Assembly (NCBI GenBank): GCA_041738615.1
Contig: JBGSPL010000002.1
Coordinates: 76,654 to 114,149, forward strand
From: Patescibacteria group bacterium
GTDB taxonomy: Bacteria > Patescibacteriota > CPR2 > UBA1875 > CAIMLA01
Direction of reading: 5' to 3'
DNA: 37,496 bases
Under the pieces are notes generated by a model. The model saw only the letters and a list, made by a program, of their open reading frames with translations, was not told where the DNA came from and searched no databases. Both the position numbers and the translations under genes were made by a program. Position 1 is the first letter of the stretch. The number at the start of each line of letters is the position of its first letter. Positions 1,086 through 33,494 of the stretch are shown in pieces.

Positions 1086-2018
1086 CTATTGGTATTTTTT
1101 TGCTTGGGATACTAGCAGAGTGAAAGAGCCAGCGATCACTAGGCCTAGCACGAGTGTTAGCCCAAAATCGTTTACTTTTTCGGGACCTGTACCGGTCCTG
1201 GGCAGAGTCGTGGCAGTTGTGACATTCTCCGTTGAAACGGTGCTTGCAGTGTTCACGGTGCTTGTAGATGGCGACAAACAAGAAGAACCAGTGAAGGTAT
1301 TGTTATCGAGCGTCACCGCACCAGTCTGTGCCAAAGCGCGCCCGGCTAGGATTGCACCTGTATCCATACTAATGGAAGTGAGTGCCAGTATGTTTCCAAT
1401 AAATGTTGTGTTTGTGCCGAGAGAAGCAGAACTGGCGACCTTCCACCAAACATTACATGGCGAGCCAATCCCGTTAAGGAATTGGACAGTCGGATCATCA
1501 GTTTCGCCCGTAGATGTAATTAACGTACTTAATTCTGCTCGGAAAATCCAGACTGCACCAGGGTCACCCTGAGCGTCCAAGGTAAGCATTCCAGATAATT
1601 GAAACGCATTTGCACAGTAGACCCCAGGGATAAGTGTCAACCCTTCCAGTTCTTTTGTAACGGCTCCGTAGTCTTGGCCGCTGCACGCTACATTGGGCGC
1701 AGCACTAAGCGCGAGATATGCTGCGGTGTTAGCATTCTGAGCCGCCAGCGAGTCTCCTGCGTTGCGGATATTCCCTGGAGGCCCAACAAGGCCAGGCGGG
1801 AAACCAGTTGGGGATCCGCCTATACTTATACCGATATCGCCGGGCATAGTGGTAGCACCAGTGTTAGTTACTGTTGTATGCCCAAGAACCGAGTAACTTC
1901 CCGCTGCACTGAGTGTAGGAGAGGTGGCCGCAAAAACCTTTGTGGCTGGGCCGGCTACAAAGAGCAGAGCCGCTATAGGGAGTGCAAGAACAATCGGAAA
2001 CTTGCTCAAAAATTTCAT
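1086..2018 (-). CDS. secreted DUF3494 (ice-binding-like beta-solenoid) protein with C-terminal LPXTG sortase anchor
   Basis: Signal peptide MKFLSKFPIVLALPIAALLFVAGPATKVFA. DUF3494-type motifs: VLGHTTVTNTG, TGFPPG, LTLIPGVYC, LTLDAQGDPGAVWIF, CNVWWKVASSASLGTNTTFIGNILA, GRALAQTGAVTLDNNT. C-terminus has LPRTG, then a hydrophobic helix, then KKYQ. Confidence 0.85.
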   Translation of the reverse strand: MKFLSKFPIVLALPIAALLFVAGPATKVFAATSPTLSAAGSYSVLGHTTVTNTGATTMPGDIGISIGGSPTGFPPGLVGPPGNIRNAGDSLAAQNANTAAYLALSAAPNVACSGQDYGAVTKELEGLTLIPGVYCANAFQLSGMLTLDAQGDPGAVWIFRAELSTLITSTGETDDPTVQFLNGIGSPCNVWWKVASSASLGTNTTFIGNILALTSISMDTGAILAGRALAQTGAVTLDNNTFTGSSCLSPSTSTVNTASTVSTENVTTATTLPRTGTGPEKVNDFGLTLVLGLVIAGSFTLLVSQAKKYQ

Positions 2019-5084: not shown

Positions 5085-5594
5085 TTAGGAGAATAGTTCG
5101 AACCTGTCGTGGGCGACGCCGCAGATGGGGCAGATCTCAGGTGCTTTATCGCGGGCACAAAGGTAACCGCAGACGGTACAGCGCCATATAGGAAGATTGC
5201 TTCCTAATTTTGAATTTCGAATCTCGAGTTTCGAATTGTCAGTTGCCATTTCTTGCCTCATTACTTTAGGTTTACGTCTTTCCGGAATCGGTTTTAAAGT
5301 TTGTTTACCTTCAGTTATCGCTTTGTTTACGTAAAGACCGCAGTAACAGGCCCCAAAGTCTGTAAGGTCGGCATCCCTGTAGTCACATGGGCAGATGATG
5401 TCGAGGTCTTCTGTTCGCTTACCGGTCGCAAGCCTACAAGGGCAGGCCTGGTACCCATATCGTTCCTCATTTACCATCAGGCTTTCTAAGAGCGCTTTGG
5501 TAAAGTCGAGATCGGGATTTAGAAAGTAGCCTCGCTTATCTGCGAGGGATTTAAGCCCAGAGTAGAGGTTATTGGTTTTATCGGCATCTGCCAT
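5085..5594 (-). CDS. ferredoxin-thioredoxin-reductase catalytic-subunit-like domain fused to a C-terminal rubredoxin domain
   Basis: CPC...CPC...CYC cluster/disulfide motif (YQACPCRLATGK...IICPCDYRD...GACYCGLY) followed by a rubredoxin knuckle pair WRCTVCGY...CPICGV. The linker carries the heptamer repeat. Confidence 0.85.
   Translation of the reverse strand: MADADKTNNLYSGLKSLADKRGYFLNPDLDFTKALLESLMVNEERYGYQACPCRLATGKRTEDLDIICPCDYRDADLTDFGACYCGLYVNKAITEGKQTLKPIPERRKPKVMRQEMATDNSKLEIRNSKLGSNLPIWRCTVCGYLCARDKAPEICPICGVAHDRFELFS
5206..5237 (-). repeat. AATTCGA heptamer array (4.6 units) in-frame in the FTR-rubredoxin linker
   Basis: The sense (minus) strand reads AATTCGA AACTCGA GATTCGA AATTCAA AATT and encodes DNSKLEIRNSKLG. 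Confidence 0.7.
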
Positions 5595-8128: not shown

Positions 8129-8217
8129 TGGCGGAGAGGAAGGGATTCGAACCCTTGATACCTTGCGGTATACACGCTTTCCAAGCGTGCGCACTAGGCC
8201 AACTATGCGACCTCTCC
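8129..8217 (-). tRNA. tRNA-Ser (anticodon GGA), CCA encoded
   Basis: Folded by hand. Acceptor GGAGAGG/CCTCTCC, 3-bp D stem, anticodon stem CACGC/GCGTG with loop TTGGAAA (GGA), long variable arm ATACC-GCAA-GGTAT, T arm AAGGG-TTCGAAT-CCCTT, discriminator G, CCA. 89 nt. Confidence 0.9.
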
Positions 8218-8381: not shown

Positions 8382-9188
8382 TTAAAGCTCGATGTCTTCG
8401 AAGAGTTCGTCTAGTTTGAATTCAAAGTCCTGAGGATGTAGCAACCATTGGAACTTTTCAGGGTTTTCTACAAAAGAGGTGTAGAGTGGCTTTGCCTTAG
8501 TGATTCCCCATTCGGGTTTCTCTAGAGCACGGACAATCCTCACGGATTTGATGTCATAATTGGGATTCTCTACAAGCCCTGCCTCGGTTCGGTATAGGGC
8601 CCCGCCAATTTTTTCCTTGAACATGCCGTATTGTGACTGATTCGGGTTATCACGTTTCTGGATATCAATTTCTGCTGCAGGTTCTGTCCCTACATTCATG
8701 CTGACATGACCGTATCCGGGAGGCATGACTACTTTGTCACACTCATCGGCTACTACCCAGATTACATCGACTTTTCCGTCCTCATCTTCTTCACTTTGAA
8801 GTAGATATTCGAATTTGCCAGAAACAGCCTCGTATACTTCGGGGTAAGCGACCTTAGTACCTTCCACATATCCATGGTAGTGGCCCACTGTCTTTGTGAA
8901 TTCATCACCTACTTTACCTGGGTTTATGATGGTAAGGTCCGCCATAAAGTCGTTGTCCACGAAAACAGCTTCGTCGCTGGTTTTCTCCATGTAGCGGTTA
9001 CCAAAATATAAGGTCTTCGACAATTTCGAATTTCGAATTTCGAATTTCGAATGATCGCGATATGCATACTTCCCTGCCTCGAAGGTCTTGTCCCACTCCA
9101 CAGCGGGCGTAAAATCCTCTCGCGAGTAATTTAGTTTATCTTCTCCGATGGAGAAGTCTAGGCCTGATTTTTCTTTGTAATTTCTCAT
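8382..9188 (-). CDS. cupin-type (archaeal-type) glucose-6-phosphate isomerase
   Basis: Cupin metal motifs TVGHYHGY...YPEVYEAVSGKFEYLLQ and VMPPGYGHVSMNVG match my memory of the cPGI family signature (TxGHxH...EvY, PPxxxHxxxN). Confidence 0.85.
   Translation of the reverse strand: MRNYKEKSGLDFSIGEDKLNYSREDFTPAVEWDKTFEAGKYAYRDHSKFEIRNSKLSKTLYFGNRYMEKTSDEAVFVDNDFMADLTIINPGKVGDEFTKTVGHYHGYVEGTKVAYPEVYEAVSGKFEYLLQSEEDEDGKVDVIWVVADECDKVVMPPGYGHVSMNVGTEPAAEIDIQKRDNPNQSQYGMFKEKIGGALYRTEAGLVENPNYDIKSVRIVRALEKPEWGITKAKPLYTSFVENPEKFQWLLHPQDFEFKLDELFEDIEL
9022..9052 (-). repeat. perfect heptanucleotide tract (TTCGAAT)x4.4 inside the PGI gene
   Basis: The plus strand reads AAT TTCGAAT TTCGAAT TTCGAAT TTCGAAT. 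The sense strand encodes HSKFEIRNSKL. Confidence 0.85.
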
Positions 9189-13653: not shown

Positions 13654-13666
13654 AGACTTTGGGATA

Positions 13667-13695
13667 TTCGAATTCTAATGTGAAAGACGTATAAT
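13667..13695 (+). promoter_or_regulatory. candidate promoter with the -10 box 6 nt upstream of the PRC-barrel ATG
   Basis: TTCGAA (13667-13672), 17 nt, TATAAT (13690-13695), then AGGTCT and ATG 13702. Confidence 0.35.
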
Positions 13696-17063: not shown

Positions 17064-17807
17064 ATGAAGAAACGCATTGACCAGATGCTCGTGGATAACG
17101 GACTAGTAGAAAGTAAGAACAAAGCCCAAGCACTTGTGATGGCTGGTCAAGTTTTTGCGGATGGCCACATGGTGAGCAAATCCGGGACGAAGCTAGATGC
17201 AGAAGCTAACGTCTGTGTGAAGGAGCTTTTTCCGTATGTTTCACGTGGAGCATTGAAGTTAGAGAAGGCATTCATTGAGTTTAATCTCGACTTTAGAGGG
17301 AAAACTATCTGCGATATCGGCTCCTCGACAGGGGGCTTTACCGACTTCGCGCTGCAGAATGGTGCCGCGAAGTCTTTTTGCGTTGATGTCGGTACGGGGC
17401 AGCTCGCTCAGAAAATACGTGAAGACTCACGAGTCGTAGTAATGGAGAAGACAGACTTTAGGGACGTTTCTTTCCCCGAGCCTATCGACATCTTTGTCTG
17501 TGACGTCTCCTTTATTTCGTTGAAGCAGATTATCCCGAAAATAGCGGAACTAATTCGAAACTCGAAATTCGAAACTCGAAATTCAACAGAACTTGTTCTG
17601 TTAATTAAGCCTCAATTTGAAGCAGGAGTAAAAGAGGTTAGTAAGGGCAAGGGTGTAATCCGAGATGAAGCCTTGCGCCTCGAAATTGTGGAAGACATCA
17701 AAAAGTTTGCCGTTGCGAAGGGTTTCCAGGTGCTAGGTGTCACAACGTCCCCAATTACTGGTGCCAAGGGGAACGTAGAGTATCTACTGCATTTAGACTA
17801 TAATTAA
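17064..17807 (+). CDS. tlyA: TlyA-family rRNA 2'-O-methyltransferase (S4 + FtsJ domains)
   Basis: S4-like N-terminus (RIDQMLVDNGLVESKNKAQALVMAG), SAM motif DIGSSTGGFTD, DVSFISL, and KPQFEAG. Confidence 0.9.
   Translation: MKKRIDQMLVDNGLVESKNKAQALVMAGQVFADGHMVSKSGTKLDAEANVCVKELFPYVSRGALKLEKAFIEFNLDFRGKTICDIGSSTGGFTDFALQNGAAKSFCVDVGTGQLAQKIREDSRVVVMEKTDFRDVSFPEPIDIFVCDVSFISLKQIIPKIAELIRNSKFETRNSTELVLLIKPQFEAGVKEVSKGKGVIRDEALRLEIVEDIKKFAVAKGFQVLGVTTSPITGAKGNVEYLLHLDYN
17552..17586 (+). repeat. AATTCGA heptamer array (5 units) in-frame in tlyA
   Basis: AATTCGA AACTCGA AATTCGA AACTCGA AATTCAA, encoding IRNSKFETRNST. Confidence 0.75.
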
Positions 17808-24103: not shown

Positions 24104-27100
24104 TTGAAAAGCACCAGCGACATTGGCACAGGATTGGATGGAGAGCTTATAGTCGATGGTACAAATGCTAGCCAAACTAAGGTGATAAGGCCAAATAACA
24201 CGGTGATAACGCTCGGATGCGGTCCGACGCGGGCCTCTACGATATGTAATGCATCTACTCCGTTGTATTTAAATACTGCTATCGCACCGATAGACGGCAA
24301 TACACATAGGATATACAACTTTACCAAGGTGACTATCAAAAACAACGGGGTGCTCACCCACAGTGATGGTGCAGGACTTAACGATACGATTTATGAGGGT
24401 ATAAATATACTCGCCACTACACAGGTAGATATCCAGGCCGGCTCCAGTATTGACGTAACAGGCCGTGGTACCAAGACGACAGCAGCAGCTGGTGGTAGTG
24501 GTGGTTGCTACGGAACCGTTGGAGGATTTGGTGGCCAAGTAGTGAGCTTCCCCTATACTAGGACTCAATGCACGACTTACGGAAGCAGTACAGATGTGGG
24601 CTATATGGGTTCAAAGGGAGCGAACTCCACGTTATCTGAAATACTGGGTGGCAATGGCGGCGGACGCGTCCAGATATCGACAGACGCGCTTCTAGTAAAT
24701 GGGAGTATTCAGGCAAACGGGACAGGTGGAAGGCATATCAACCCCGGTTATGCTGCGAATAGCATTGCAGCAGGTGGTGGTTCTGGTGGGGGTATAGTTT
24801 TGGGGGCCAGGGTGGCTACCATTACTGGCTATGTCAGTGCAGCTGGTGGTGGAGGTGGTGGAACTGGTCTGAGTTATAGCACCGGCATCCAAGGATCACC
24901 TGGCTATAATGGCGTAGGTGGTTCTGGCGGTTGGTGGAACGCTGCTTATAACTCTATACCAGGAGGTTTGCCTGGTACGGCTGGGTCTGGTGCTGATGGT
25001 GGTAGCTCAGGTTTAGCCTACGGGACCTATCCAGGCGAGGCAGCGGGTAGTGGCGGTGTTTATAACCCAACGGTTAATAATACAGGGGGCGGCGGTGGTG
25101 GCGCGGGCAGAATCAAGGCTACTATAGGGACTATAAACGGAAGCTATCCAACCCATTATGTCTACGATGGCAATCTATCCGCTTCAACAGGATGGGTCGT
25201 AGAGGCAAGCACTCCCGGGACCCTGGATAGTAATCTCGTAACTAGCTCGACCGTGGGGGCAACCTATAACTACACCTTTACGAACTCGACAGCTGTTGTC
25301 CTGATGGCTTCGAAGATTCAGAACTACGGTACCGCTGAGGTGTGGGTAGATAGTGGTGCCAAGACGGTTATCAATGAGGATGCAGGACCAGACGTCTGGA
25401 TACCTTGCAACATGATATCGGGTTCGTGTGAGGCCGGTACTGGTGTTTGGGCAACCCCTAGGTCCGACCAAGTGAATATGTTTAGCCAAAGCGGTCTAGA
25501 CCCTACCTCTAGCCATACTATATATGTGAAAGTTCTGAGTGGAAAGATCGATATAGACTCCTTTACTACGGCCAACATATTACCAGCTTACTCATATAAT
25601 GCAGATATACCGGCAAATGTAGGTCCATACGGCTACTATTCTAAAATTGGTTTCCTTACCCCTGGGGTACTAGGCGGGACAAACTCGGCAAGTCTGAAGA
25701 TCGGACTTCGTAAGAATTTGGGCAAAAAGGTAAATTGGAAACAGATACAACTCACGGGCAGTAGCGTGATTCCAGCGGGAACGACCGTGAAGGTTATGGG
25801 GCGGTTCGCAGACACCTATGGATCTAACGGATTTATGGCGCCCGACACTAAAGTGTTGGATAGCTATTCAGCACCGATAAACAGCTCAACCCTCACTTTG
25901 AATATGGGATCGGATATATACTCGAGCACTATAGAGCTCTATTTGGAGCTGTCTAGTCCTGCGGGTATAGCTACGCCAATAGTGGACGGCATTACAGCGA
26001 GCTACGACGCTCTGGAACCGCCGACTAACGTAAATACAACTTTACAGAAAAATAATAACTCATACCTGAAGAAAATAGACGGGACCATCATAGATACCCC
26101 TAGCGGCACGCCGGCTGCTGGGCACGCACTTTACGGTACTGCTGGGGGCACTACAAATGAAACAACGCTCAAGGTTACGGCCAGCGGACTTACTTGTGCT
26201 GGTTGTACCGGGACAACCACAGGGAGACACTTGGAAGTTCAATACAAAGCTGTCGGTACTGCATTCGACTCGCCGACTGCGGATGAAACTACCAACCTTT
26301 TCGACGGTTCGCCCGGAGATATTGCCAGTGTAACATCGACGGCAACGCTTACGGGCTTGTCGGCGGGTACCTCCTATCAGCTCCGAACGCGAGCCTCCGA
26401 CGGTAGTGGCAGGGCGAGTGCTTGGACATACTATGGTTCGGGCACCAACAGTGCGAATGAAGCTGACTTTACAGTTGATCAATCGGCACCAGTGCTCGGA
26501 ACTTTTACTGTCAAAGGCAACATCGGTGGAAGTCCCAGCTTCGTCAATGCTACCGAGGACGCCAGTCTAGCGAAGGTCGAGGTACAACTTCGAGACAACA
26601 TCTCCACTAACGTGGATGTCCAGTTTTCCGAGGACGGGGTGAATGGCTGGGGAGCTTACTATGCAACCAATGGCAGTAATAACCTCGATAACAATTGGGG
26701 CGCCAATAGCTACATCACAGTCAGCGAAGTCACAAATACGCTTTCTTTGAAGACGTTGTCTGCCGCGTGGAAGTTTACGACTGACGGGGCAAAGCAACTT
26801 TACATCCGAGTTAGAGACAACGCAGGGAATATTATTACCAGTGGAGGCTCAAATAATGTCACCTTGGATTCGGTCTTTCCTACCGGTACTGTAACGATAA
26901 ACACAGGTGCTGCGAGAACAAACGATAAGAATGTCAATCTGATCCTAAACCCTAGCGAGCAAACCGCAACGGCGACAGTTTCCGGGATCAAGGAATTCCA
27001 GCTCTCCAATGATGGATCCAATTGGGGTACCGCATACAATCCGACCACAGGTGCTTACAGCGGCGCGTGGCAAGCATGGCTACCGAGCCATGCCAGCAGT

Positions 27101-30100
27101 GGATACACATGGAGTCTGGTAAAGGGAGCCTCGGATACAGGGACGGATGGGGCTAGGACAGTTTATGTCAAATATCGAGACAATGCAGGTAATATCAATA
27201 CTGCGAGTCCTTTACCAAACACAGTTACAGTTGGCGGCCAGACTTGGCAGGATCGTAACTTAAATAGCGGTACAATGGTACCTGGCGGCACCGCACAGAG
27301 TGTCGGACAGAAGTGGTGCTATGACGACTCAGAGTCTAATTGTACGACTTACGGCGCACTGTATCAGTGGAATACAGCGATGGCTGGCAGCACCACAGAG
27401 GGTGCGCAAGGTGCTTGTCCGGTAAACTTCCATGTGCCGAGTGATAGCGAGTACAAAACTCTTGAGATGAATCTAGGGATGTCGCAAGCACAAGCCGATG
27501 CCTCGGGATGGCGAGGTACAGACGAGGGGACCAAAATTAAAACAGGCGGTACTAGCGGATTCGAGGCATTGCTGGGAGGTTACGCTTACCCATTCTCTGG
27601 CAGCACGGCATATACATATTTCTGGACTAGTACCCAAGCCAGTGCCAACTTTGCTTGGTATAGACAGTATGTAAACACACTACCTAACTCAATCCGTGAC
27701 AACTCAAGCAAGCTCTCTGGGTACTCTCTACGTTGTATTCAAAACTCGGGGTTCTACAATTCGGCTATCAGTGCAAGCACGACCCTAGATACTACCGCGC
27801 CAGCAATAAGTGTTGCGCATTTAGAGTCTAGCAACTCATCTGTCTCGAAGGCAAAACCAGGTGATGTAATCACCTTGACTATGGTTGCTTCTGAAGCGGT
27901 TACTACACCATCGGTTACTATTGCCGGGCATGCGGCGGCCGTTACGGGAAGTACCCCAAACTTTACCGCTACGTATACTATGCAGCAAGCTGATGCCAAC
28001 GGTACTATCGCCTTTAATATATCAAGCTTTGCAGACCTAGCTGGTAATGCTGGTGTGACTCGGACTACGACTACAGATAGTTCGGCAGTTGCTTTTGACA
28101 AAGACACTCCCACAGCCCCAACATTCGACTTTGTAGAGGGTCTTTATACCAATAGCCCGCTTGGGCAGGCCACGCTGAGGATGTCTCTCGCGGACACTGG
28201 CGGCTCGGACCTCGTTAGCTATCAGCTAGCCACAGAGGATACAACATCTGGTTGGCAAGCGGCGAGTGTAAATGTGATTTCTGGATCTGCCTATACGGAC
28301 AATTCGATTGTTTGGGACCTATCGCCTACCGAGGGGGTCAATGATGCCTACGCTAGGATTATAGATGGAGCAGGTAACGTCTCGGTAGTACATACTAGTA
28401 TTACTTACGATGTCACGAACCCAGGTAATCCAACGGCTATTACCGCCCAGAAGTCGATCTCTGATGCTACCGTAGTAAACCAGTCTACTTGGTATCCACA
28501 TACCGCACCGAAGTTTAGCTGGTCGGCGACTGACGGGACACTTGGTTCCGGAGTCAAGGGCTACTGGGTATACCTAGGTCCGCTATCTAGTGGCGTCCCT
28601 GTAAAAACCGTTTCACCCGACGCAAATTATTTCTTCCTCCCTATCCAACCACAAGATAACGGGAATGCTATTTTGAATATCAATCTTAGCGCTGGAGGAT
28701 ATCCAGAGGGGAAACTTTACCTAAAGACAAAAACCGAGGATAACGTCGGCCTACTATCAAGCGGCATGAATAGCTTTACCTACTATTATGACAAAACCGT
28801 CCCATCTGTAGTCTCTGGACTTACAGCAAGTAAAGATGTTCTAAACAAGATTCACGTTTCCTGGAACGCCTCCACACAGCTTTCTTCAGAATCGCCACTT
28901 GATGAGTATCAGATAGAACGAGTAAAGGCACAATACACAATCGGTAATGACACGTTTGCGCCTCAGCTTACAGATATAGATTGGTATAACTCCGATGCCA
29001 GTAGCGGTTACGCTGTTTTCGACTTCTACCGTGCGGACCCAGTATTTACTGCCCATGGTTTCGACGACGACAAAGACAACCCGATACAAGGCCAGACAGC
29101 ACTCCAAACGGGCGTCCGTTACACATACCGGGTGCGAGCAAAGGATATCTCCAATGCTGGATTTGGGGAATGGCAGAACAGTGGCTATGTGTTTGGGTTG
29201 ACCAGGGACACCATGAAGCCAGAGGTCATCCCTAGCGGACTTACCGTTGGCGTCTGCGACACTGGCCATCTCGAAATATGCTCAAATAACACTTCGCCGG
29301 CTTTTGGCCACGAGATCAAGGTCACCTGGCTGGGTGGCTCTGACATCGGTTCCTTCATGAAGGGTTATAAAATATATAGGAACAAGGTAGGCTCGGCTGA
29401 GAACTGGGAGGTAGTCGGATTTGTTGATGTATCGGGGGGCGGTGCCCCTGCTCTCGAGTGGTACGACAACGATGCGAATAATGCAGATACATTTACTACC
29501 TTCAAACCGCAGGCTTCAAGCAACGTGAATGATTATACGATTTACGAATATAGGGTTACCGGAGTGGATAACTCACTGGATTACAACGAGAATTTCCTTG
29601 GAAACGAGGTAGACACTTATACCGAAGAGAATTACAAGAGAGCAAGTGAGCGTACACCAGACGTAACAAATCCTCCGATGCCAACCGCGTTGTCTGGGGC
29701 AGCTCTCGGCCTAGATGATTCTGACCCAGAGGCTTACACAGCCCTATCTAACGGAACGGGACAGGCTACTCTTGCAGGGGTAGATTACTTGGTTGATAGC
29801 GCGAAGAGCTGGACCCCAGACTCATTGGTAGGTTTCCAGGTAAGAATTATCAGTGGAACCGGAAGCGATGGCGCGCTGAAAAACATAGCTTCAAACACTA
29901 GCAATAGAATCAATCTAACCGATTCGTGGGATACCGAACCAGACGGCAGTTCGGCATACGAGATATATGCTGGCCACCAATGGGTAAAAGTTCGTTGGCT
30001 GCAAAATAACGATACCAATCTATATGGTGGTAGCGGTAGCGGGATCGTCGATATTCGTCTCTTTAGGTCGGAAACTCTTGGGGGTACCTATGTAGACGTG

Positions 30101-32923
30101 ACTGACAGTACGGATTTGCCCGTAGAATGTTCTCTGAATACCTGGGAGTGTACTCAGAAACGCTTACCAGATCTTACTGACTTCTATTACAAAGTATTTG
30201 TTACAGACGCAGTGGGTAATTTATCACCACTATCCACTAGTGTTGGAGAGGTCACTACGGCTAGATCATCTGCGCCAACTCTTCCTCAAGATGTGCAGAT
30301 TAGCCATACAGCAGGTGAGCCTACAGATGCAAACAAGATTGGCCATAAGTTGCACGTAAGCTTCACTGGTAGTTACGCAAAAGACTGTCAGATTGGTAAT
30401 AACAAATACTGTCTCGAGGCTTACGAAGTATATCGATCGACTACAAATTATAGTACCGATATGGATTGGCTGGACCAGGCAAAAACTACACGTTTGCCAG
30501 ACATTACTTTGGCTGCTGGGACCAAAGAGGAACGCGGCTACCCACGGTCGTTCGATGATGAAGGACAGACCTACCTAAACCCAACAACCAAGCCAGGTCT
30601 CTCTGATGCAACGCGTTACTATTATAAGGTACGAGCTAGAGACAATACCCCCGTTGAAGACGTTGTTCCTGGCCCCTTCTATTCGGCACTTTCTGAAGTT
30701 GACGAAGTGAGCCCAACGGGATTACACAAGGGCTGGGATATCACTCCAGATGCAACTAAGCCAGTGCTTAAGTCAACAAACCCAGTGACCCACGACGTCA
30801 CCCAGGGGCTCGGTGTAAAGGTGCGGGATACACATCCAAACCGAACGCAGCTAAGGAACATCGTTTCTTGGCTTGTTGTTGACCAGTCAGGCCGAAAAAA
30901 GTTGCCATATGAAACCTGTAATTCTTTCGTGGAATCGGGCACAACCTATTGTAGTGACTTTGCAAAATATGAGATATGGAGACAAAAACTAGATAATAAT
31001 ACGGTTCTAGAGAATGTGTTAGTGGGAACGACAACAGACATCCAGACCAATTTCTTTACAGACTATCTGGCTACTGATTTACAATTTAACAAATACAACT
31101 ATTATGTTGTTGTTGTAGATAATTCCGATACTCTCTTCAAGTACCCAGCACCATACAATACCCTGATCAATACCGACGCAAATCGTAGTCAGAAGGCAGT
31201 TTGTCCCGATTCAATCATCCCAGGGAAGGCTACACCAACAATTGTGGGTAATGTTACACTCTCGAACATTGGTGTGGCTAGTGCCACAGTAACTTGGAGT
31301 ACAGACCAGGATACCGATGCCGTAGTAGAGTTCCGAGAAAAGTATTTACGTACATCGGATGGCAAGGTAGACACCGCTAATCTTAATTCAACAGGAGCTT
31401 TCTCGGTGATTGGTGCCAACACCCAGCCTGGTGAGTCTTCTAACGTTCAGGGTCATACAGTTAACCTATTTGGGTTACAACCGCTCACGCCTTATGAGTA
31501 CCGAGTAGTTTCCAAGAACTATCTTGCAAATCCAGTATCAAAGGGAGGTTCCAACGTTCCAGAGCTTACCACCAAAGGCTTTACGATTACCTATAACCCA
31601 AGTCCAGAGGATATATCGACGGTTTCTGCAGAGATCCACTGGACTACCAACATGCCCTCCAACTCGAATATGATTGAATTCCGTGAGAGCAATGGCACGC
31701 AGACCGGGGCTGTTGCTGAGACTCCGATGAGCACCCAGGCTGTCGCAGAAGACGCTAAAAATTGTGACACCAATCCTGGTTCCAAGCTCTGCACCCACTC
31801 TGCGTCTATAGAACCGTTAAAGAAAGCCACTGAGTATACGATAAACATTATTTCTGTGTCCCTGGACAACTTTACGGCAAATTCAGGACTCCAGAAATTC
31901 ACGACTGCAAACTCTGACTCGAAGCAGTTTACCATCGCACCGTCAGCATCTAACGTTGCGGAGCGAAACATTACCTCTACCTCAGCTCAGATTATCTTCC
32001 AGACTTCTGAGCCCACTTCGGCGACACTCTACTATGACACCAAGACAGGTGCCCCGAACTTTGATCCAAAGGATTATAGACAGACGGCAACAGACGCGAT
32101 GAAGAGTACCACTCATGCCATCCTTGTAGATGGGCTCGAGCCGGGCAAGAAGTACTTCTACATCGTGAAGGTGGACAACGGACTCCTAAGCTACACCTCT
32201 CCAGAGGCCACCTTTACGGCCGTCCTAAAACCGAAGATTTCTAACCTCAAGGTAGCAGACGTGAAGCCATACTCGTTTAGGCTGACCTGGGATACAAATA
32301 TCGACACAGAAACGCTCATTAATCTCGGGACGAGTGCTACATATGGCGAAAAACGTGGTAAACCAGGGCTGATGAAGGCCCACGACCTCTTAGTGGAGGG
32401 TCTGCTAGACAACACAGAGTATCACTATCAGATTCTTGCAAAGGACGAGACCGGCGAGGAGGTCGCTAGTGGCGACTCTGCAGTGCGAACCCCTATGGAC
32501 ACCGAGGGTCCAAAGATATCGGCCGTGAAAGTAGACGTATTGCCTATGGGTGAAAACGATACCACTTCTTCGATCATTGTTACCTGGCAGACCGATAAGC
32601 CATCTACTACCCTAGTTGAGTATGACCAGGGCCTCATCGGCGGCGACTATAATAACCGTTCTACAGAGGATGCTACGCTAAACAATTCGCATACGGTTAT
32701 TATCAAAAACCTGGCCCCAGCATCTTCGTATCACTACAGGTTGGTATCCAAAGACAAGAGAAACAATGTCACAACTTCACAGGACTACACATTCGTAACT
32801 CCTTCGAAGGAAAAATCTATCCTGCAGATGATTCTGAAATCCCTAGAGGAAACCTTCGCCTGGACCAAGAATTTGAACCAATTCTTTGCCACTATCGGCA
32901 AGCGCCTTACGGGGAAAAGCTAG
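24104..32923 (+). CDS. giant cell-surface adhesin-like protein (2939 aa in track)
   Basis: Uninterrupted 8.8-kb ORF. It has a Gly-rich beta-helix-like head, many Ig/FN3-like modules (recurrent ...Y.R.RDNAGN...), a FISUMP module and five FN3/PAP-N-like repeats. It has no start/RBS, signal peptide or C-terminal anchor of its own. Confidence 0.9.
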   Translation: MKSTSDIGTGLDGELIVDGTNASQTKVIRPNNTVITLGCGPTRASTICNASTPLYLNTAIAPIDGNTHRIYNFTKVTIKNNGVLTHSDGAGLNDTIYEGINILATTQVDIQAGSSIDVTGRGTKTTAAAGGSGGCYGTVGGFGGQVVSFPYTRTQCTTYGSSTDVGYMGSKGANSTLSEILGGNGGGRVQISTDALLVNGSIQANGTGGRHINPGYAANSIAAGGGSGGGIVLGARVATITGYVSAAGGGGGGTGLSYSTGIQGSPGYNGVGGSGGWWNAAYNSIPGGLPGTAGSGADGGSSGLAYGTYPGEAAGSGGVYNPTVNNTGGGGGGAGRIKATIGTINGSYPTHYVYDGNLSASTGWVVEASTPGTLDSNLVTSSTVGATYNYTFTNSTAVVLMASKIQNYGTAEVWVDSGAKTVINEDAGPDVWIPCNMISGSCEAGTGVWATPRSDQVNMFSQSGLDPTSSHTIYVKVLSGKIDIDSFTTANILPAYSYNADIPANVGPYGYYSKIGFLTPGVLGGTNSASLKIGLRKNLGKKVNWKQIQLTGSSVIPAGTTVKVMGRFADTYGSNGFMAPDTKVLDSYSAPINSSTLTLNMGSDIYSSTIELYLELSSPAGIATPIVDGITASYDALEPPTNVNTTLQKNNNSYLKKIDGTIIDTPSGTPAAGHALYGTAGGTTNETTLKVTASGLTCAGCTGTTTGRHLEVQYKAVGTAFDSPTADETTNLFDGSPGDIASVTSTATLTGLSAGTSYQLRTRASDGSGRASAWTYYGSGTNSANEADFTVDQSAPVLGTFTVKGNIGGSPSFVNATEDASLAKVEVQLRDNISTNVDVQFSEDGVNGWGAYYATNGSNNLDNNWGANSYITVSEVTNTLSLKTLSAAWKFTTDGAKQLYIRVRDNAGNIITSGGSNNVTLDSVFPTGTVTINTGAARTNDKNVNLILNPSEQTATATVSGIKEFQLSNDGSNWGTAYNPTTGAYSGAWQAWLPSHASSGYTWSLVKGASDTGTDGARTVYVKYRDNAGNINTASPLPNTVTVGGQTWQDRNLNSGTMVPGGTAQSVGQKWCYDDSESNCTTYGALYQWNTAMAGSTTEGAQGACPVNFHVPSDSEYKTLEMNLGMSQAQADASGWRGTDEGTKIKTGGTSGFEALLGGYAYPFSGSTAYTYFWTSTQASANFAWYRQYVNTLPNSIRDNSSKLSGYSLRCIQNSGFYNSAISASTTLDTTAPAISVAHLESSNSSVSKAKPGDVITLTMVASEAVTTPSVTIAGHAAAVTGSTPNFTATYTMQQADANGTIAFNISSFADLAGNAGVTRTTTTDSSAVAFDKDTPTAPTFDFVEGLYTNSPLGQATLRMSLADTGGSDLVSYQLATEDTTSGWQAASVNVISGSAYTDNSIVWDLSPTEGVNDAYARIIDGAGNVSVVHTSITYDVTNPGNPTAITAQKSISDATVVNQSTWYPHTAPKFSWSATDGTLGSGVKGYWVYLGPLSSGVPVKTVSPDANYFFLPIQPQDNGNAILNINLSAGGYPEGKLYLKTKTEDNVGLLSSGMNSFTYYYDKTVPSVVSGLTASKDVLNKIHVSWNASTQLSSESPLDEYQIERVKAQYTIGNDTFAPQLTDIDWYNSDASSGYAVFDFYRADPVFTAHGFDDDKDNPIQGQTALQTGVRYTYRVRAKDISNAGFGEWQNSGYVFGLTRDTMKPEVIPSGLTVGVCDTGHLEICSNNTSPAFGHEIKVTWLGGSDIGSFMKGYKIYRNKVGSAENWEVVGFVDVSGGGAPALEWYDNDANNADTFTTFKPQASSNVNDYTIYEYRVTGVDNSLDYNENFLGNEVDTYTEENYKRASERTPDVTNPPMPTALSGAALGLDDSDPEAYTALSNGTGQATLAGVDYLVDSAKSWTPDSLVGFQVRIISGTGSDGALKNIASNTSNRINLTDSWDTEPDGSSAYEIYAGHQWVKVRWLQNNDTNLYGGSGSGIVDIRLFRSETLGGTYVDVTDSTDLPVECSLNTWECTQKRLPDLTDFYYKVFVTDAVGNLSPLSTSVGEVTTARSSAPTLPQDVQISHTAGEPTDANKIGHKLHVSFTGSYAKDCQIGNNKYCLEAYEVYRSTTNYSTDMDWLDQAKTTRLPDITLAAGTKEERGYPRSFDDEGQTYLNPTTKPGLSDATRYYYKVRARDNTPVEDVVPGPFYSALSEVDEVSPTGLHKGWDITPDATKPVLKSTNPVTHDVTQGLGVKVRDTHPNRTQLRNIVSWLVVDQSGRKKLPYETCNSFVESGTTYCSDFAKYEIWRQKLDNNTVLENVLVGTTTDIQTNFFTDYLATDLQFNKYNYYVVVVDNSDTLFKYPAPYNTLINTDANRSQKAVCPDSIIPGKATPTIVGNVTLSNIGVASATVTWSTDQDTDAVVEFREKYLRTSDGKVDTANLNSTGAFSVIGANTQPGESSNVQGHTVNLFGLQPLTPYEYRVVSKNYLANPVSKGGSNVPELTTKGFTITYNPSPEDISTVSAEIHWTTNMPSNSNMIEFRESNGTQTGAVAETPMSTQAVAEDAKNCDTNPGSKLCTHSASIEPLKKATEYTINIISVSLDNFTANSGLQKFTTANSDSKQFTIAPSASNVAERNITSTSAQIIFQTSEPTSATLYYDTKTGAPNFDPKDYRQTATDAMKSTTHAILVDGLEPGKKYFYIVKVDNGLLSYTSPEATFTAVLKPKISNLKVADVKPYSFRLTWDTNIDTETLINLGTSATYGEKRGKPGLMKAHDLLVEGLLDNTEYHYQILAKDETGEEVASGDSAVRTPMDTEGPKISAVKVDVLPMGENDTTSSIIVTWQTDKPSTTLVEYDQGLIGGDYNNRSTEDATLNNSHTVIIKNLAPASSYHYRLVSKDKRNNVTTSQDYTFVTPSKEKSILQMILKSLEETFAWTKNLNQFFATIGKRLTGKS
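24365..25140 (+). other. glycine-rich beta-helix-like region of the giant protein (approximate bounds)
   Basis: Periodic G-runs alternate with short hydrophobic strands: AAAGGSGGCYG, LGGNGGGRVQISTDALLVNGSIQANGTGG, AAGGGSGGGIVLGA, AAGGGGGGTG, TGGGGGGAGRIKA. Confidence 0.6.
27221..27745 (+). other. Fibrobacter succinogenes major paralogous (FISUMP) domain embedded in the giant protein
   Basis: GGQTWQDRNLN...QKWCYDDSESNCTTYGALYQWNTAM...CPVNFHVPSDSEYKTLE...GTSGFEALLGGY...YFWTST...SGYSLRCIQN matches the remembered family pattern (W..eNL, C.YG.LY.W..A, CP.GWh.PS..Ew..L, SGF.al..G, fWsst, S.RC). Confidence 0.75.
31220..32803 (+). other. five tandem FN3 / purple-acid-phosphatase-N-like modules at the C-terminus (approximate bounds)
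   Basis: Each ~100-aa unit has ...A.V.W.T...s...veY... then H.v.l.gL.p.t.Y.Y.v. Examples: ATVTWSTDQDTDAVVEF...YEYRVVS, and IIVTWQTDKPSTTLVEY...YHYRLVS. Confidence 0.65.
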
Positions 32924-32949: not shown

Positions 32950-32984
32950 AATTTCGACTTTCTAGTTCTGAATTTCGAATGAAA
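32950..32984 (+). repeat. degenerate intergenic heptamer array (5 units)
   Basis: AATTTCG ACTTTCT AGTTCTG AATTTCG AATGAAA. It has the same 7-nt period and core as the genic arrays, in the opposite orientation. Confidence 0.45.
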
Positions 32985-33050: not shown

Positions 33051-33494
33051 ATGCGAATCACGAAACAGGAAATTAAGAATAATGAAATCTCGGCACGGAA
33101 GTACCTCGACGAGTATGGGATCAACGACGACCTTGTCTTTGACCACTTCGGTTTACAATCGCTTACCTCCGATGAGTACTGGGAGTTGAAGAATTACTTT
33201 ATCATTCGTGGTAAGTTCGAAGGCGAAATCCACTTCCATGACCGCCGTCTGGGACGTTTCACGCTGGGTGAGGACAAGGACAAGATGGAGCTCATCGAGC
33301 CGCACCCCGGGCAGGTGTTCATGCAGTATGACTGCTTCGTCGAGCATGTCGCCTTTCGTGTGAAAAATATAGATGCTCTCGCGAAACAGTTTAAGGATAA
33401 AACACTTTCCACCTTCAATATAGAAGGGACCCGTGGATTTAAGATCCAGGGCCCAGGTATTTTGCTGATTGAGTTTCGGAATAACGAGTTCTAA
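33051..33494 (+). CDS. VOC/glyoxalase-fold family protein (paralog A)
   Basis: DHFGLQ, ELIEPHPG, EHVAFRV, GFKIQ and LIEFRNNEF. It shares this motif set with the convergent paralog. The family call is by fold-pattern resemblance only. Confidence 0.6.
   Translation: MRITKQEIKNNEISARKYLDEYGINDDLVFDHFGLQSLTSDEYWELKNYFIIRGKFEGEIHFHDRRLGRFTLGEDKDKMELIEPHPGQVFMQYDCFVEHVAFRVKNIDALAKQFKDKTLSTFNIEGTRGFKIQGPGILLIEFRNNEF

Follow-up and report, generated by a model that had tools for sequence, protein, structure and literature searches.

How does a heptanucleotide come to stand in tandem, and in frame, inside three housekeeping genes of one small genome? The question was raised by a window of 37,496 nt (the whole stretch of DNA analyzed; contig JBGSPL010000002.1, positions 76,654 to 114,149) from a Patescibacteria group bacterium. 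Four arrays of the unit AATTCGA, which is the palindrome TTCGAA plus A, lie in this window. The host genome, called G000 here, consists of 814 kb in four contigs, is 97% complete, and is of a size typical of the Candidate Phyla Radiation (CPR). The arrays belong to a known, unexplained class of bacterial heptanucleotide simple-sequence repeats (SSRs). With moderate confidence, we propose that they are tracts made in place by template misalignment in a 7-nt register and filtered by selection, rather than inserted mobile elements. The proposal draws on the anatomy, length rule, and distribution of the tracts, on sites where a tract replaces native sequence, on units that match local codons, and on a one-unit slip.

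Heptamer tracts in the window and their host proteins

The tract in the gene for a cupin-type phosphoglucose isomerase (PGI) is perfect. It occupies 9022-9052 on the minus strand, within the open reading frame (ORF) at 8382-9188 (minus strand), and consists of 31 nt, (AATTCGA)x4.4. Tandem Repeats Finder (TRF) returned a period of 7 with 4.4 copies and 100% matches. It is the sole perfect tandem repeat in the genome with at least three units and a period of at least 5. The protein (P0002; cupin-type GPI in Pfam) carries the tract peptide HSKFEIRNSKL in a six-residue hypervariable N-terminal loop. An ortholog alignment gives the G000 protein exactly 7 extra residues compared to about 20 orthologs, and in the codon alignment the tract with its adjoining TCGAAG spans 39 nt where the orthologs have 18 nt, a net gain of 21 nt. 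The nearest relative, P0004, is without the tract.

A similar gain is seen in TlyA (P0003; S4 plus FtsJ domains in Pfam), encoded by the ORF at 17064-17807 on the plus strand. Its tract (17551-17586, plus strand) has a perfect 14-nt period and reads TAATT-CG-AAACT-CG-AAATT-CG-AAACT-CG-AAATT-CA. TRF scored 17552-17584 as period 14 with 2.4 copies and 100% matches or, as period 7, 3.9 copies and 90%. The peptide is IRNSKFETRNST, of which the tract covers IRNSKFETRNS. This TlyA has exactly seven residues more than its solved homologs, and a 7-residue gap appears at the site in PDB 3hp7 and 3opn (net +21 nt). An AlphaFold2 model of the protein has a mean pLDDT of 94, and the tract region, at a local pLDDT of 84-87, is the part of lowest confidence. 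Its residues, I164-S174, form the end of a helix (153-166) plus a surface loop (167-174).

The third genic tract is a decayed one of 33 nt (5206-5238, minus strand) in the ORF at 5085-5594 (minus strand), which encodes a fusion of ferredoxin:thioredoxin reductase (FTR) and rubredoxin (P0001; FeThRed_B plus a rubredoxin-like domain in Pfam). The sense strand reads CAATT-CG-AAACT-CG-AGATT-CG-AAATT-CA-AAATT, and TRF reported period 7, 4.6 copies, and 80% matches for 5206-5237. The tract peptide is DNSKLEIRNSKLG, the 33 nt themselves encoding NSKLEIRNSKL. By alignment to PDB 4tpu, it falls in the interdomain linker that joins the catalytic domain of FTR to the rubredoxin domain.

All three genic tracts of the window show the same layout of five blocks and four junctions, and all are translated in frame in the AATTCGA sense (the IRNSKFE orientation). 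Nearly all genic tracts in relatives also read IRNSKFE. An earlier note on this DNA had placed the genic copies in frame, in one coding orientation, and in linker or loop positions; the translations, the 4tpu alignment, the ortholog alignment, and the AlphaFold2 model bear this out. Set against orthologs or solved homologs, PGI and TlyA each have exactly 7 extra residues. The unit is stop-free in all six frames, as the note had pointed out, yet this property is only mildly special, being shared by 50% of all heptamers and by 18% of heptamers with the base composition of AATTCGA. It acts as a moderate sieve.

The fourth tract (32950-32984, minus strand), found with the approximate genome scan and confirmed in the sequence, is a decayed five-unit array between genes. 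Its plus strand reads AATTTCG ACTTTCT AGTTCTG AATTTCG AATGAAA, and the unit is matched at 26/35 positions by our own count. It starts 26 nt past the stop codon of a single ORF of 2939 residues (24104-32923, plus strand), and 66 nt separate its end from the ORF at 33051-33494. The same heptamer is thus repeated at four loci. The earlier note had listed a fifth, a two-unit remnant at 13664-13677 (ATTCGAATTCTAAT, with no strand assigned). It was missed by the approximate scan, and we estimate that about 2 such one-mismatch 14-mers are expected by chance in 814 kb. Since matches of that quality are at chance level genome-wide, the remnant was dropped and not accepted into the family.

The approximate scan found only five AATTCGA arrays in the whole genome, one of them outside the window, at C1:98916. 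As a control, the reversed pattern AGCTTAA gave 0 matches in G000, a figure to be read with the reservation that this control carries TAA on both strands, so that selection may be part of the reason why it is rare in gene-dense genomes. With five arrays in 814 kb, none for the control, and the PGI repeat the only perfect one of its kind, the note's expectation that the array is commoner than chance was upheld.

Length, units, and spread of the tracts

To see how far the unit extends beyond G000, 185,579 species genomes were scanned for four exact units, which yielded at least 120 loci. The anatomy described in this paragraph is that of the arrays among the matches listed. Exactly four full units were present in 124 of 127 arrays and five in the other 3, and exact array length peaked at 32-33 nt. 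Position -1 was A in 110/126 arrays, with no continuation of the array at -2 or -3, where the composition showed only a weak preference (G at -3, purine at -2). REP repeats mobilized by a Y1 (RAYT) transposase are marked by a conserved 5' tetranucleotide beside a hairpin; upstream of the present arrays, the composition goes no further than this weak preference. Downstream, conservation dropped through 96, 87, 77, 53, and 33% and was then random. The 5' end of the tract is therefore sharp and the 3' end ragged. The consensus, AAATT-CG-AAATT-CG-AAATT-CG-AAATT-CG-AAATT, comprises 33 nt, 11 codons, or 4.7 units, with five AAATT-like blocks and four CG. Neither a target-site duplication nor a flanking inverted repeat was found above shuffled expectation in 125 arrays.

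The same length recurs with other units. In the 790 kb around the arrays among the matches listed, there were 161 perfect period-7 runs of other units, compared to 24, 37, 8, and 1 runs for periods 5, 6, 8, and 9. Their mismatch-tolerant lengths peaked at 30-35 nt (60/140), and these lengths are free of the length ascertainment bias that comes with a search for AATTCGA. In G016, a genome of the same order (573 kb), TRF gave 120 hits of period 7; periods 6, 8, and 9 gave 34, 48, and 67. The period-7 hits comprised dozens of different units, mostly AAATT+NN, with lengths on a plateau up to ~35 nt followed by a drop. Of the G016 tracts with at least 3.5 copies, 30/39 were non-coding, and the coding ones all encoded polar NSK-type peptides. 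N-runs in G016 (e.g., C8:836-1013 and C15:25837-26027) have one tandem repeat on both sides; in one example, 132 N stand between (ATTAAGA)n repeats, and in another, 147 N between (AATTCGA)n repeats. Long arrays, some 180-190 nt in length, are therefore hidden by the masking.

For G000, the excess of period 7 is modest (27 TRF rows vs 51 for period 9), and its own period-7 tracts of about 4 or more copies are all 27-32 nt long. One such unit, CAAAATA, forms a 32-nt tract in frame in a TrmD-like gene (AKNKLQNTKYK) and is found at both C2:101-132 and C4:10-41. The ends of contigs C2 and C4 overlap there as reverse complements, and the assembly break coincides with the overlap. At C2:96770-96830, a degenerate ATTGAAA heptamer tract directly follows sequence that translates as CEERSDAAIS, which resembles a dispersed palindromic repeat that gives short spurious ORFs in many genomes.

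Heptanucleotides have been described as the most abundant long SSRs in many genomes, and polymerase slippage was put forward to explain them (Mrazek, Guo & Shah 2007, as summarized in PMC4679880). As far as PMC4679880 and PMC4692102 relate that work, it shares with ours the tandem 7-nt units, the period-7 excess, the sporadic spread, and the proposal of slippage in a ~7-nt register. The same accounts stress large, GC-rich, free-living genomes and a preference for multiple-of-3 units in coding sequence, whereas here heptamers lie in frame in a 0.8-Mb CPR genome, a native loop is replaced, and one unit recurs across phyla. The GGGNATC repeats of Xanthomonas and Nostoc are, like the present tracts, mostly intergenic and variable between close relatives, and their four-unit preference was ascribed to G-quadruplex formation (Rehm et al. 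2015, PMC4692102). AT-rich units such as AATTCGA and AAAACTC cannot form quadruplexes yet share the ~33-nt mode, so the length rule is apparently independent of quadruplexes. TAACTGA repeats of Beggiatoaceae, cyanobacteria, and Bacteroidetes, in 2-6 copies, are likewise short tandem sets of one heptamer scattered over unrelated phyla, with "no mechanism evident" (MacGregor 2015, PMC4679880). Their location, too, is shaped by the strand that carries stop codons. TAACTGA, however, has stops in all forward frames and lies almost wholly between genes, just upstream of start codons, while AATTCGA is stop-free and lies inside genes. In our literature search, no paper turned up that deals with the AATTCGA repeat or its peptide, or with heptamer repeats in CPR.

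Hairpin stability was considered as a cause of the success of the unit or of the length rule and was rejected. The tract folds with -8.7 kcal/mol, which is no better than shuffles (z = -1.1) and equal to the reversed control, and AAAACTC tracts, which are unstructured, obey the length rule too.

The distribution of AATTCGA arrays is patchy at every level. Two genomes of the same genus had no array at ≤2 mismatches per 21 nt. Within the order, 6/28 genomes had an array, and G016 had ten or more loci. Among 401 genomes drawn evenly from the phylum, 22 had the array and 1 had the reversed control. The matches listed from the species-genome scan were all in metagenome-assembled genomes (MAGs), from short-read and long-read assemblies of many studies. 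They included the CPR groups Roizman-, Woese-, Levy-, Davies-, and Gottesmanbacteria, as well as Verrucomicrobia, Acidobacteriota, Planctomycetes, Delta- and Gammaproteobacteria, Nitrospirota, Bacteroidota, and one Micrarchaeia archaeon, and they reached GC-rich DNA too. Viral contigs yielded no exact four-unit copy. By GC skew, the AATTCGA strand was the G-rich strand in 82/117 loci, a bias confounded with the sense-strand preference in genes. Inverted pairs of AATTCGA tracts, 145-320 nt apart, were seen in GC-rich Deltaproteobacteria and Thermoanaerobaculia MAGs (L095, L097, L109, L136, L160, L183, L192). These pairs often have a G-rich run ahead and other heptamer tracts alongside (CAATTCT, GAATGAG, AAAACTC), and the inter-tract segments of L095 and L183 look homologous.

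Replacement, age, and change of the tracts

Leucyl-tRNA synthetase (LeuRS) and TruB allow the tract to be compared with the native sequence at the same site. In LeuRS, the segment from RNWIG.S.G to VFTTR is canonically 32 residues long, and this length is kept in G016 and KR13, both of which carry a perfect 33-nt tract (KFEIRNSKFEI) in the same codon phase between diverged flanks. The tract is also present at the same place in G023 and G386. Among the best 120 hits in a survey of this hairpin, from many phyla, the segment had 12-13 residues in all and was clearly 7-aa periodic in 25, a fraction inflated because hits were ranked by similarity to a tract-bearing query. The diversity of the units is not a product of that ranking bias. 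Ten of these sequences agree exactly with the prediction obtained by reiterating a 7-nt unit from the first three codons, and four units gave such an exact prediction: AAATTCG, GAATTCA, GAATTCC, and CAATTCT. The native hairpin can be read as encoding x-F-x-I with a second Ile seven residues on, which would place ATT anchors 21 nt apart in one 7-nt register. Native LeuRS sites match the array at 16-19/31 positions, compared to a background 99th percentile of 17. One Peribacteria LeuRS (P0130) has a second tract-like peptide, PEIRNSEFGIRNEEKKKIPHSAFRIPN, in a C-terminal insertion besides its hairpin tract.

In truB, G023 and G027 have a 33-nt tract in place of a native loop of 12 residues (36 nt) that is common to G021 (same genus) and G026 (another genus). 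The alignments indicate that the LeuRS and TruB tracts replace a native loop with little or no change in length. The truB locus also records a slip. G027 and G023 are 98% identical over 880 nt, differ by exactly one 7-nt unit inside truB, and the longer (+7-nt) allele of the AATTCGA-type tract splits the gene in G023. This agrees with the earlier claim that the array is tolerated in genes only while the frame is kept. In the genus of G027 and G023 (L032/L039), truB has a second heptamer tract as well, with the unit ATGTCGG and the peptide RNRMSDVGDRKKP, ~250 nt upstream of the AATTCGA-type tract.

Among named relatives, those nearest to the TlyA protein belong to candidate divisions WS5 and CPR2 and the "Patescibacteria group". 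Among 111 homologs, the tract loop has 30 residues in 57, and about 17 have a tract-derived loop of 36-37 residues (IRNSKLETRNS and decayed forms). In G016, the TlyA array is ~190 nt long, compared to 35 nt in G000, in the same loop and the same codon phase. A TlyA tree built with the loop masked puts the tract state as ancestral in one clade and patchy in the clade of G000. The NSK-like loops of tract-free orthologs were also considered as decayed tracts; their similarity was at background (13-18/33) and their Ser codon was AGC, not TCG, so this idea was rejected.

The FTR tract has a decayed copy in the congener G001 (~68% identity to the unit by our own count), and the G000 protein is four residues longer. 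Since G001 carries this copy, the tract is older than the split of the two species. A search of 90% protein clusters for strain variants found only the G001 ortholog and no close strains. The earlier note had named ancestral sequence, shared by distant orthologs, as grounds for refuting an insertion, and these grounds apply in part. The presence of decayed copies in about 17 TlyA relatives and in the FTR of G001 makes both tracts old features and not recent insertions. The two tracts are nevertheless absent from most orthologs and distant homologs.

Inserts of another kind share TlyA with the tract. Relatives in family f5 (L024-L029; also P0091, P0103, P0107, P0109) have an in-frame insert of ~30-38 residues, FSKRVILACPGS...DSGQARMT, between residues ~138 and 139 of the window TlyA. 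Judged from the sequence, VILACPGS and SGQARMT look like the arms of an inverted repeat read in frame, which would make this an insert resembling a Rickettsia palindromic element (RPE) in a CPR housekeeping gene. Two TlyA loops, the tract loop and that at residues ~135, are hot spots where further inserts, 18-40 residues long and in frame, occur (P0010, P0018, P0019, P0025, P0029, P0032, P0034, P0039, P0043, P0044, P0051, P0087, P0109). Recurring motifs in them, VIPAKAGIQ...SGMT, SLG.ARDD, RLRGNDG, and CHSRPP...GGNLDPRV, look like dispersed palindromic repeats that have been translated. An insert of this type sits inside a heptamer tract in P0078 and P0052.

The surroundings of the tracts in the window are ordinary. 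Four of the five G000 arrays lie within 27.8 kb (simulated p about 9e-4), and a replication origin in the window was rejected as the cause of this clustering since no clear skew switch was seen. The neighbors are housekeeping genes: rpoD, dnaG, glutaredoxin, a class I (Trp/Tyr-type) tRNA synthetase, phosphoglucomutase, S6, EF-P, an ABC transporter, and ychF. The genes surrounding the tracts include none from a mobile element. A search of the window against Rfam matched no family to the tracts; the sole match was a tRNA gene (8132-8217, minus strand; RF00005, 55.5 bits) between a membrane-protein ORF and the PGI gene. Another ORF (1086-2018, minus strand) has a full-length Ice_binding domain (PF11999, E = 5e-45), which is unexpected in a small CPR-type genome.

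Origin of the tracts

We propose that a tract would be written in place during replication or repair. At a short proto-repeat in the native sequence, for example NAATTCNNAATT, the growing strand would misalign on its template in a 7-nt register, re-copy the unit about three more times, and then re-anneal. Re-annealing just past the seed would add a net 21 nt, as in PGI and TlyA, and re-annealing at a native anchor ~21 nt further on would leave the length unchanged, as in LeuRS, or nearly so, as in TruB. Because single 7-nt steps frameshift single-copy essential genes, a genic tract would represent one event or a few frame-keeping events. Tracts that start sharply at the 5' end and end raggedly at the 3' end, with units drawn from local codons and a net change of 0 or +21 nt, fit saltatory template misalignment. 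We infer the misalignment and the writing in one step from comparative anatomy.

Selection would then act as a filter. Most tracts would persist between genes, and the survivors within genes would be those that are in frame, stop-free, translated as a polar peptide (IRNSKFE, not FEFRISN), and located in surface loops or linkers that tolerate a change in length. Products that are out of frame, contain a stop, or are hydrophobic would be removed. Later, a tract may decay by point mutation, with occasional re-homogenization, rare expansion, and an occasional one-unit slip that breaks a gene.

Templated mutagenesis by transient misalignment at imperfect repeats is reportedly known from the models of Ripley and of Kunkel and from phage T4, in work by Schultz & Drake in 2008. 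It is likewise said to cause multi-nucleotide changes in single events that homogenize imperfect repeats with or without a change in length. The known cases involve one donor/recipient pair, in contrast to the 7-nt register reiterated over ~33 nt here, and such reiteration is not known to have been described.

Several points weigh against misalignment at a local seed. Ordinary stepwise slippage predicts a monotonic fall in length and cannot add three units to a 1.7-unit seed, so the mechanism would have to take an unusual, saltatory form. In G000, 5 of about 9 tracts have the unit AATTCGA, which recurs in many phyla as well as in the 22/401 phylum genomes, and a purely local-seed model does not explain this recurrence. 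Misalignment likewise gives no account of the 7-nt and ~33-nt limits or of the clustering of tracts in G000. The nearest PGI ortholog shows no visible seed at the tract site. The location of four of the five G000 tracts within 28 kb hints at copying between tracts. The inflated periodic fraction in the LeuRS survey counts here too. It is possible, and we suggest it tentatively, that a novel mutational process shared by bacteria of many phyla rewrites a stretch of ~33 nt in one step, templated in a 7-nt register and seeded by a native proto-repeat.

Ectopic copying between tracts is a reasonable partial rival. An existing 33-nt tract would template short-patch conversion or template switching at partly similar loci, with no change in length or, when only ~12 nt of the recipient pair with the donor, with a gain of 21 nt. 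This would account for one unit at five G000 loci, four of them within 27.8 kb, and for AATTCGA-type tracts at 10 or more loci in G016. The length of the donor would dictate the constant ~33 nt and the sharp ends, and 33 minus 12 is the 21-nt gain of PGI and TlyA. The native LeuRS sites are in the upper similarity tail (16-19/31 against a 99th percentile of 17), but their unit varies by lineage and follows local codons rather than a genome-wide family, and a similarity of 12-17 nt is too short for RecA-type recombination. G016 has dozens of different units. Copying also leaves the first tract and the cross-phylum recurrence of one unit without an account. We consider it an unlikely origin.

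A dedicated trans-acting writer that adds ~4.7 heptamer units at breaks or nicks would be a telomerase-like or template-jumping reverse transcriptase, a primase-polymerase, or an end-joining polymerase. The sharp start and ragged end of the tracts do resemble templated synthesis with variable termination, and the uniform length across phyla and units and the sporadic phylogenetic distribution are also in its favor. Two families were tested. The reverse transcriptase family PF00078 was absent from G000, from G016 (the richest, 87% complete), from G130, and from G377, and was present in the tract-negative G021 and G012; Ku was absent from 18/18 genomes tested. The many units, with those of LeuRS set by local codons, argue against a single template, and viral contigs had no exact four-unit copy. 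Such a writer seems to us quite doubtful.

Another possible explanation, though a still less probable one, is that the tracts are selected functional elements, acting as phase-variation switches in genes or, between them, as terminator-like signals or sites that bind protein or RNA. A one-unit change switches truB off in G023, an intergenic tract lies 26 nt past a stop codon, and heptamer repeats at gene ends have been proposed as regulators (PMC4679880, PMC4692102). The genic hosts, however, are single-copy housekeeping genes (LeuRS, TruB, TlyA, PGI) in which switching off would be costly, and lengths are stable and in frame across relatives. A hairpin of -8.7 kcal/mol is possible, but shuffles fold as well, the unstructured AAAACTC tracts obey the length rule, and no Rfam family matches.

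The earlier note had likened the arrays to RPEs, which are palindromic mobile elements of 100-150 nt that insert and add a peptide segment. The likeness holds for a short dispersed sequence translated in frame at surface positions of housekeeping proteins; the tract is also quasi-palindromic and of discrete length, and true palindromic-element-like inserts share the TlyA loops in relatives. It fails for the rest. The tracts are 33-nt tandems of 7-nt units instead of two arms and a loop, they have no target-site duplication, flanking inverted repeat, or exact four-unit copy in viral contigs, and they replace native sequence without length change in LeuRS and TruB. Diverse units, many per genome, come under one ~33-nt rule, and in LeuRS they can be predicted from local codons. 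An in-frame miniature mobile element is therefore largely refuted and very improbable. An assembly or sequencing artifact is hardly credible, even with all public hits among the matches listed being MAGs, since the conserved genes that hold tracts in frame are collinear with orthologs on both sides of the tract, decayed copies are common to different species, and the length is the same in short-read and long-read assemblies from many studies.

We return to saltatory misalignment in place, filtered by selection. The over-representation of heptanucleotides has been known since 2007, and the four-unit preference has so far been explained only for G-rich units. New here are the ~33-nt rule for AT-rich units that form no quadruplex, the length-neutral overwriting of coding sequence in essential genes, and a LeuRS unit that follows local codons in many phyla, with which saltatory misalignment in a 7-nt register becomes testable. 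If the process shared across phyla is real, ordinary sequence, including that of loops in essential genes (LeuRS, TruB, TlyA, PGI), would be turned into perfect heptamer tracts with a change in length of 0 or +21 nt, and the four-unit preference once ascribed to G-quadruplexes would be the footprint of the rewriting process. In small uncultured genomes, the process would time and again lead to surprising annotations and would occasionally break a gene. It would also be a general, saltatory source of new protein loop sequence, rewritten in single events.

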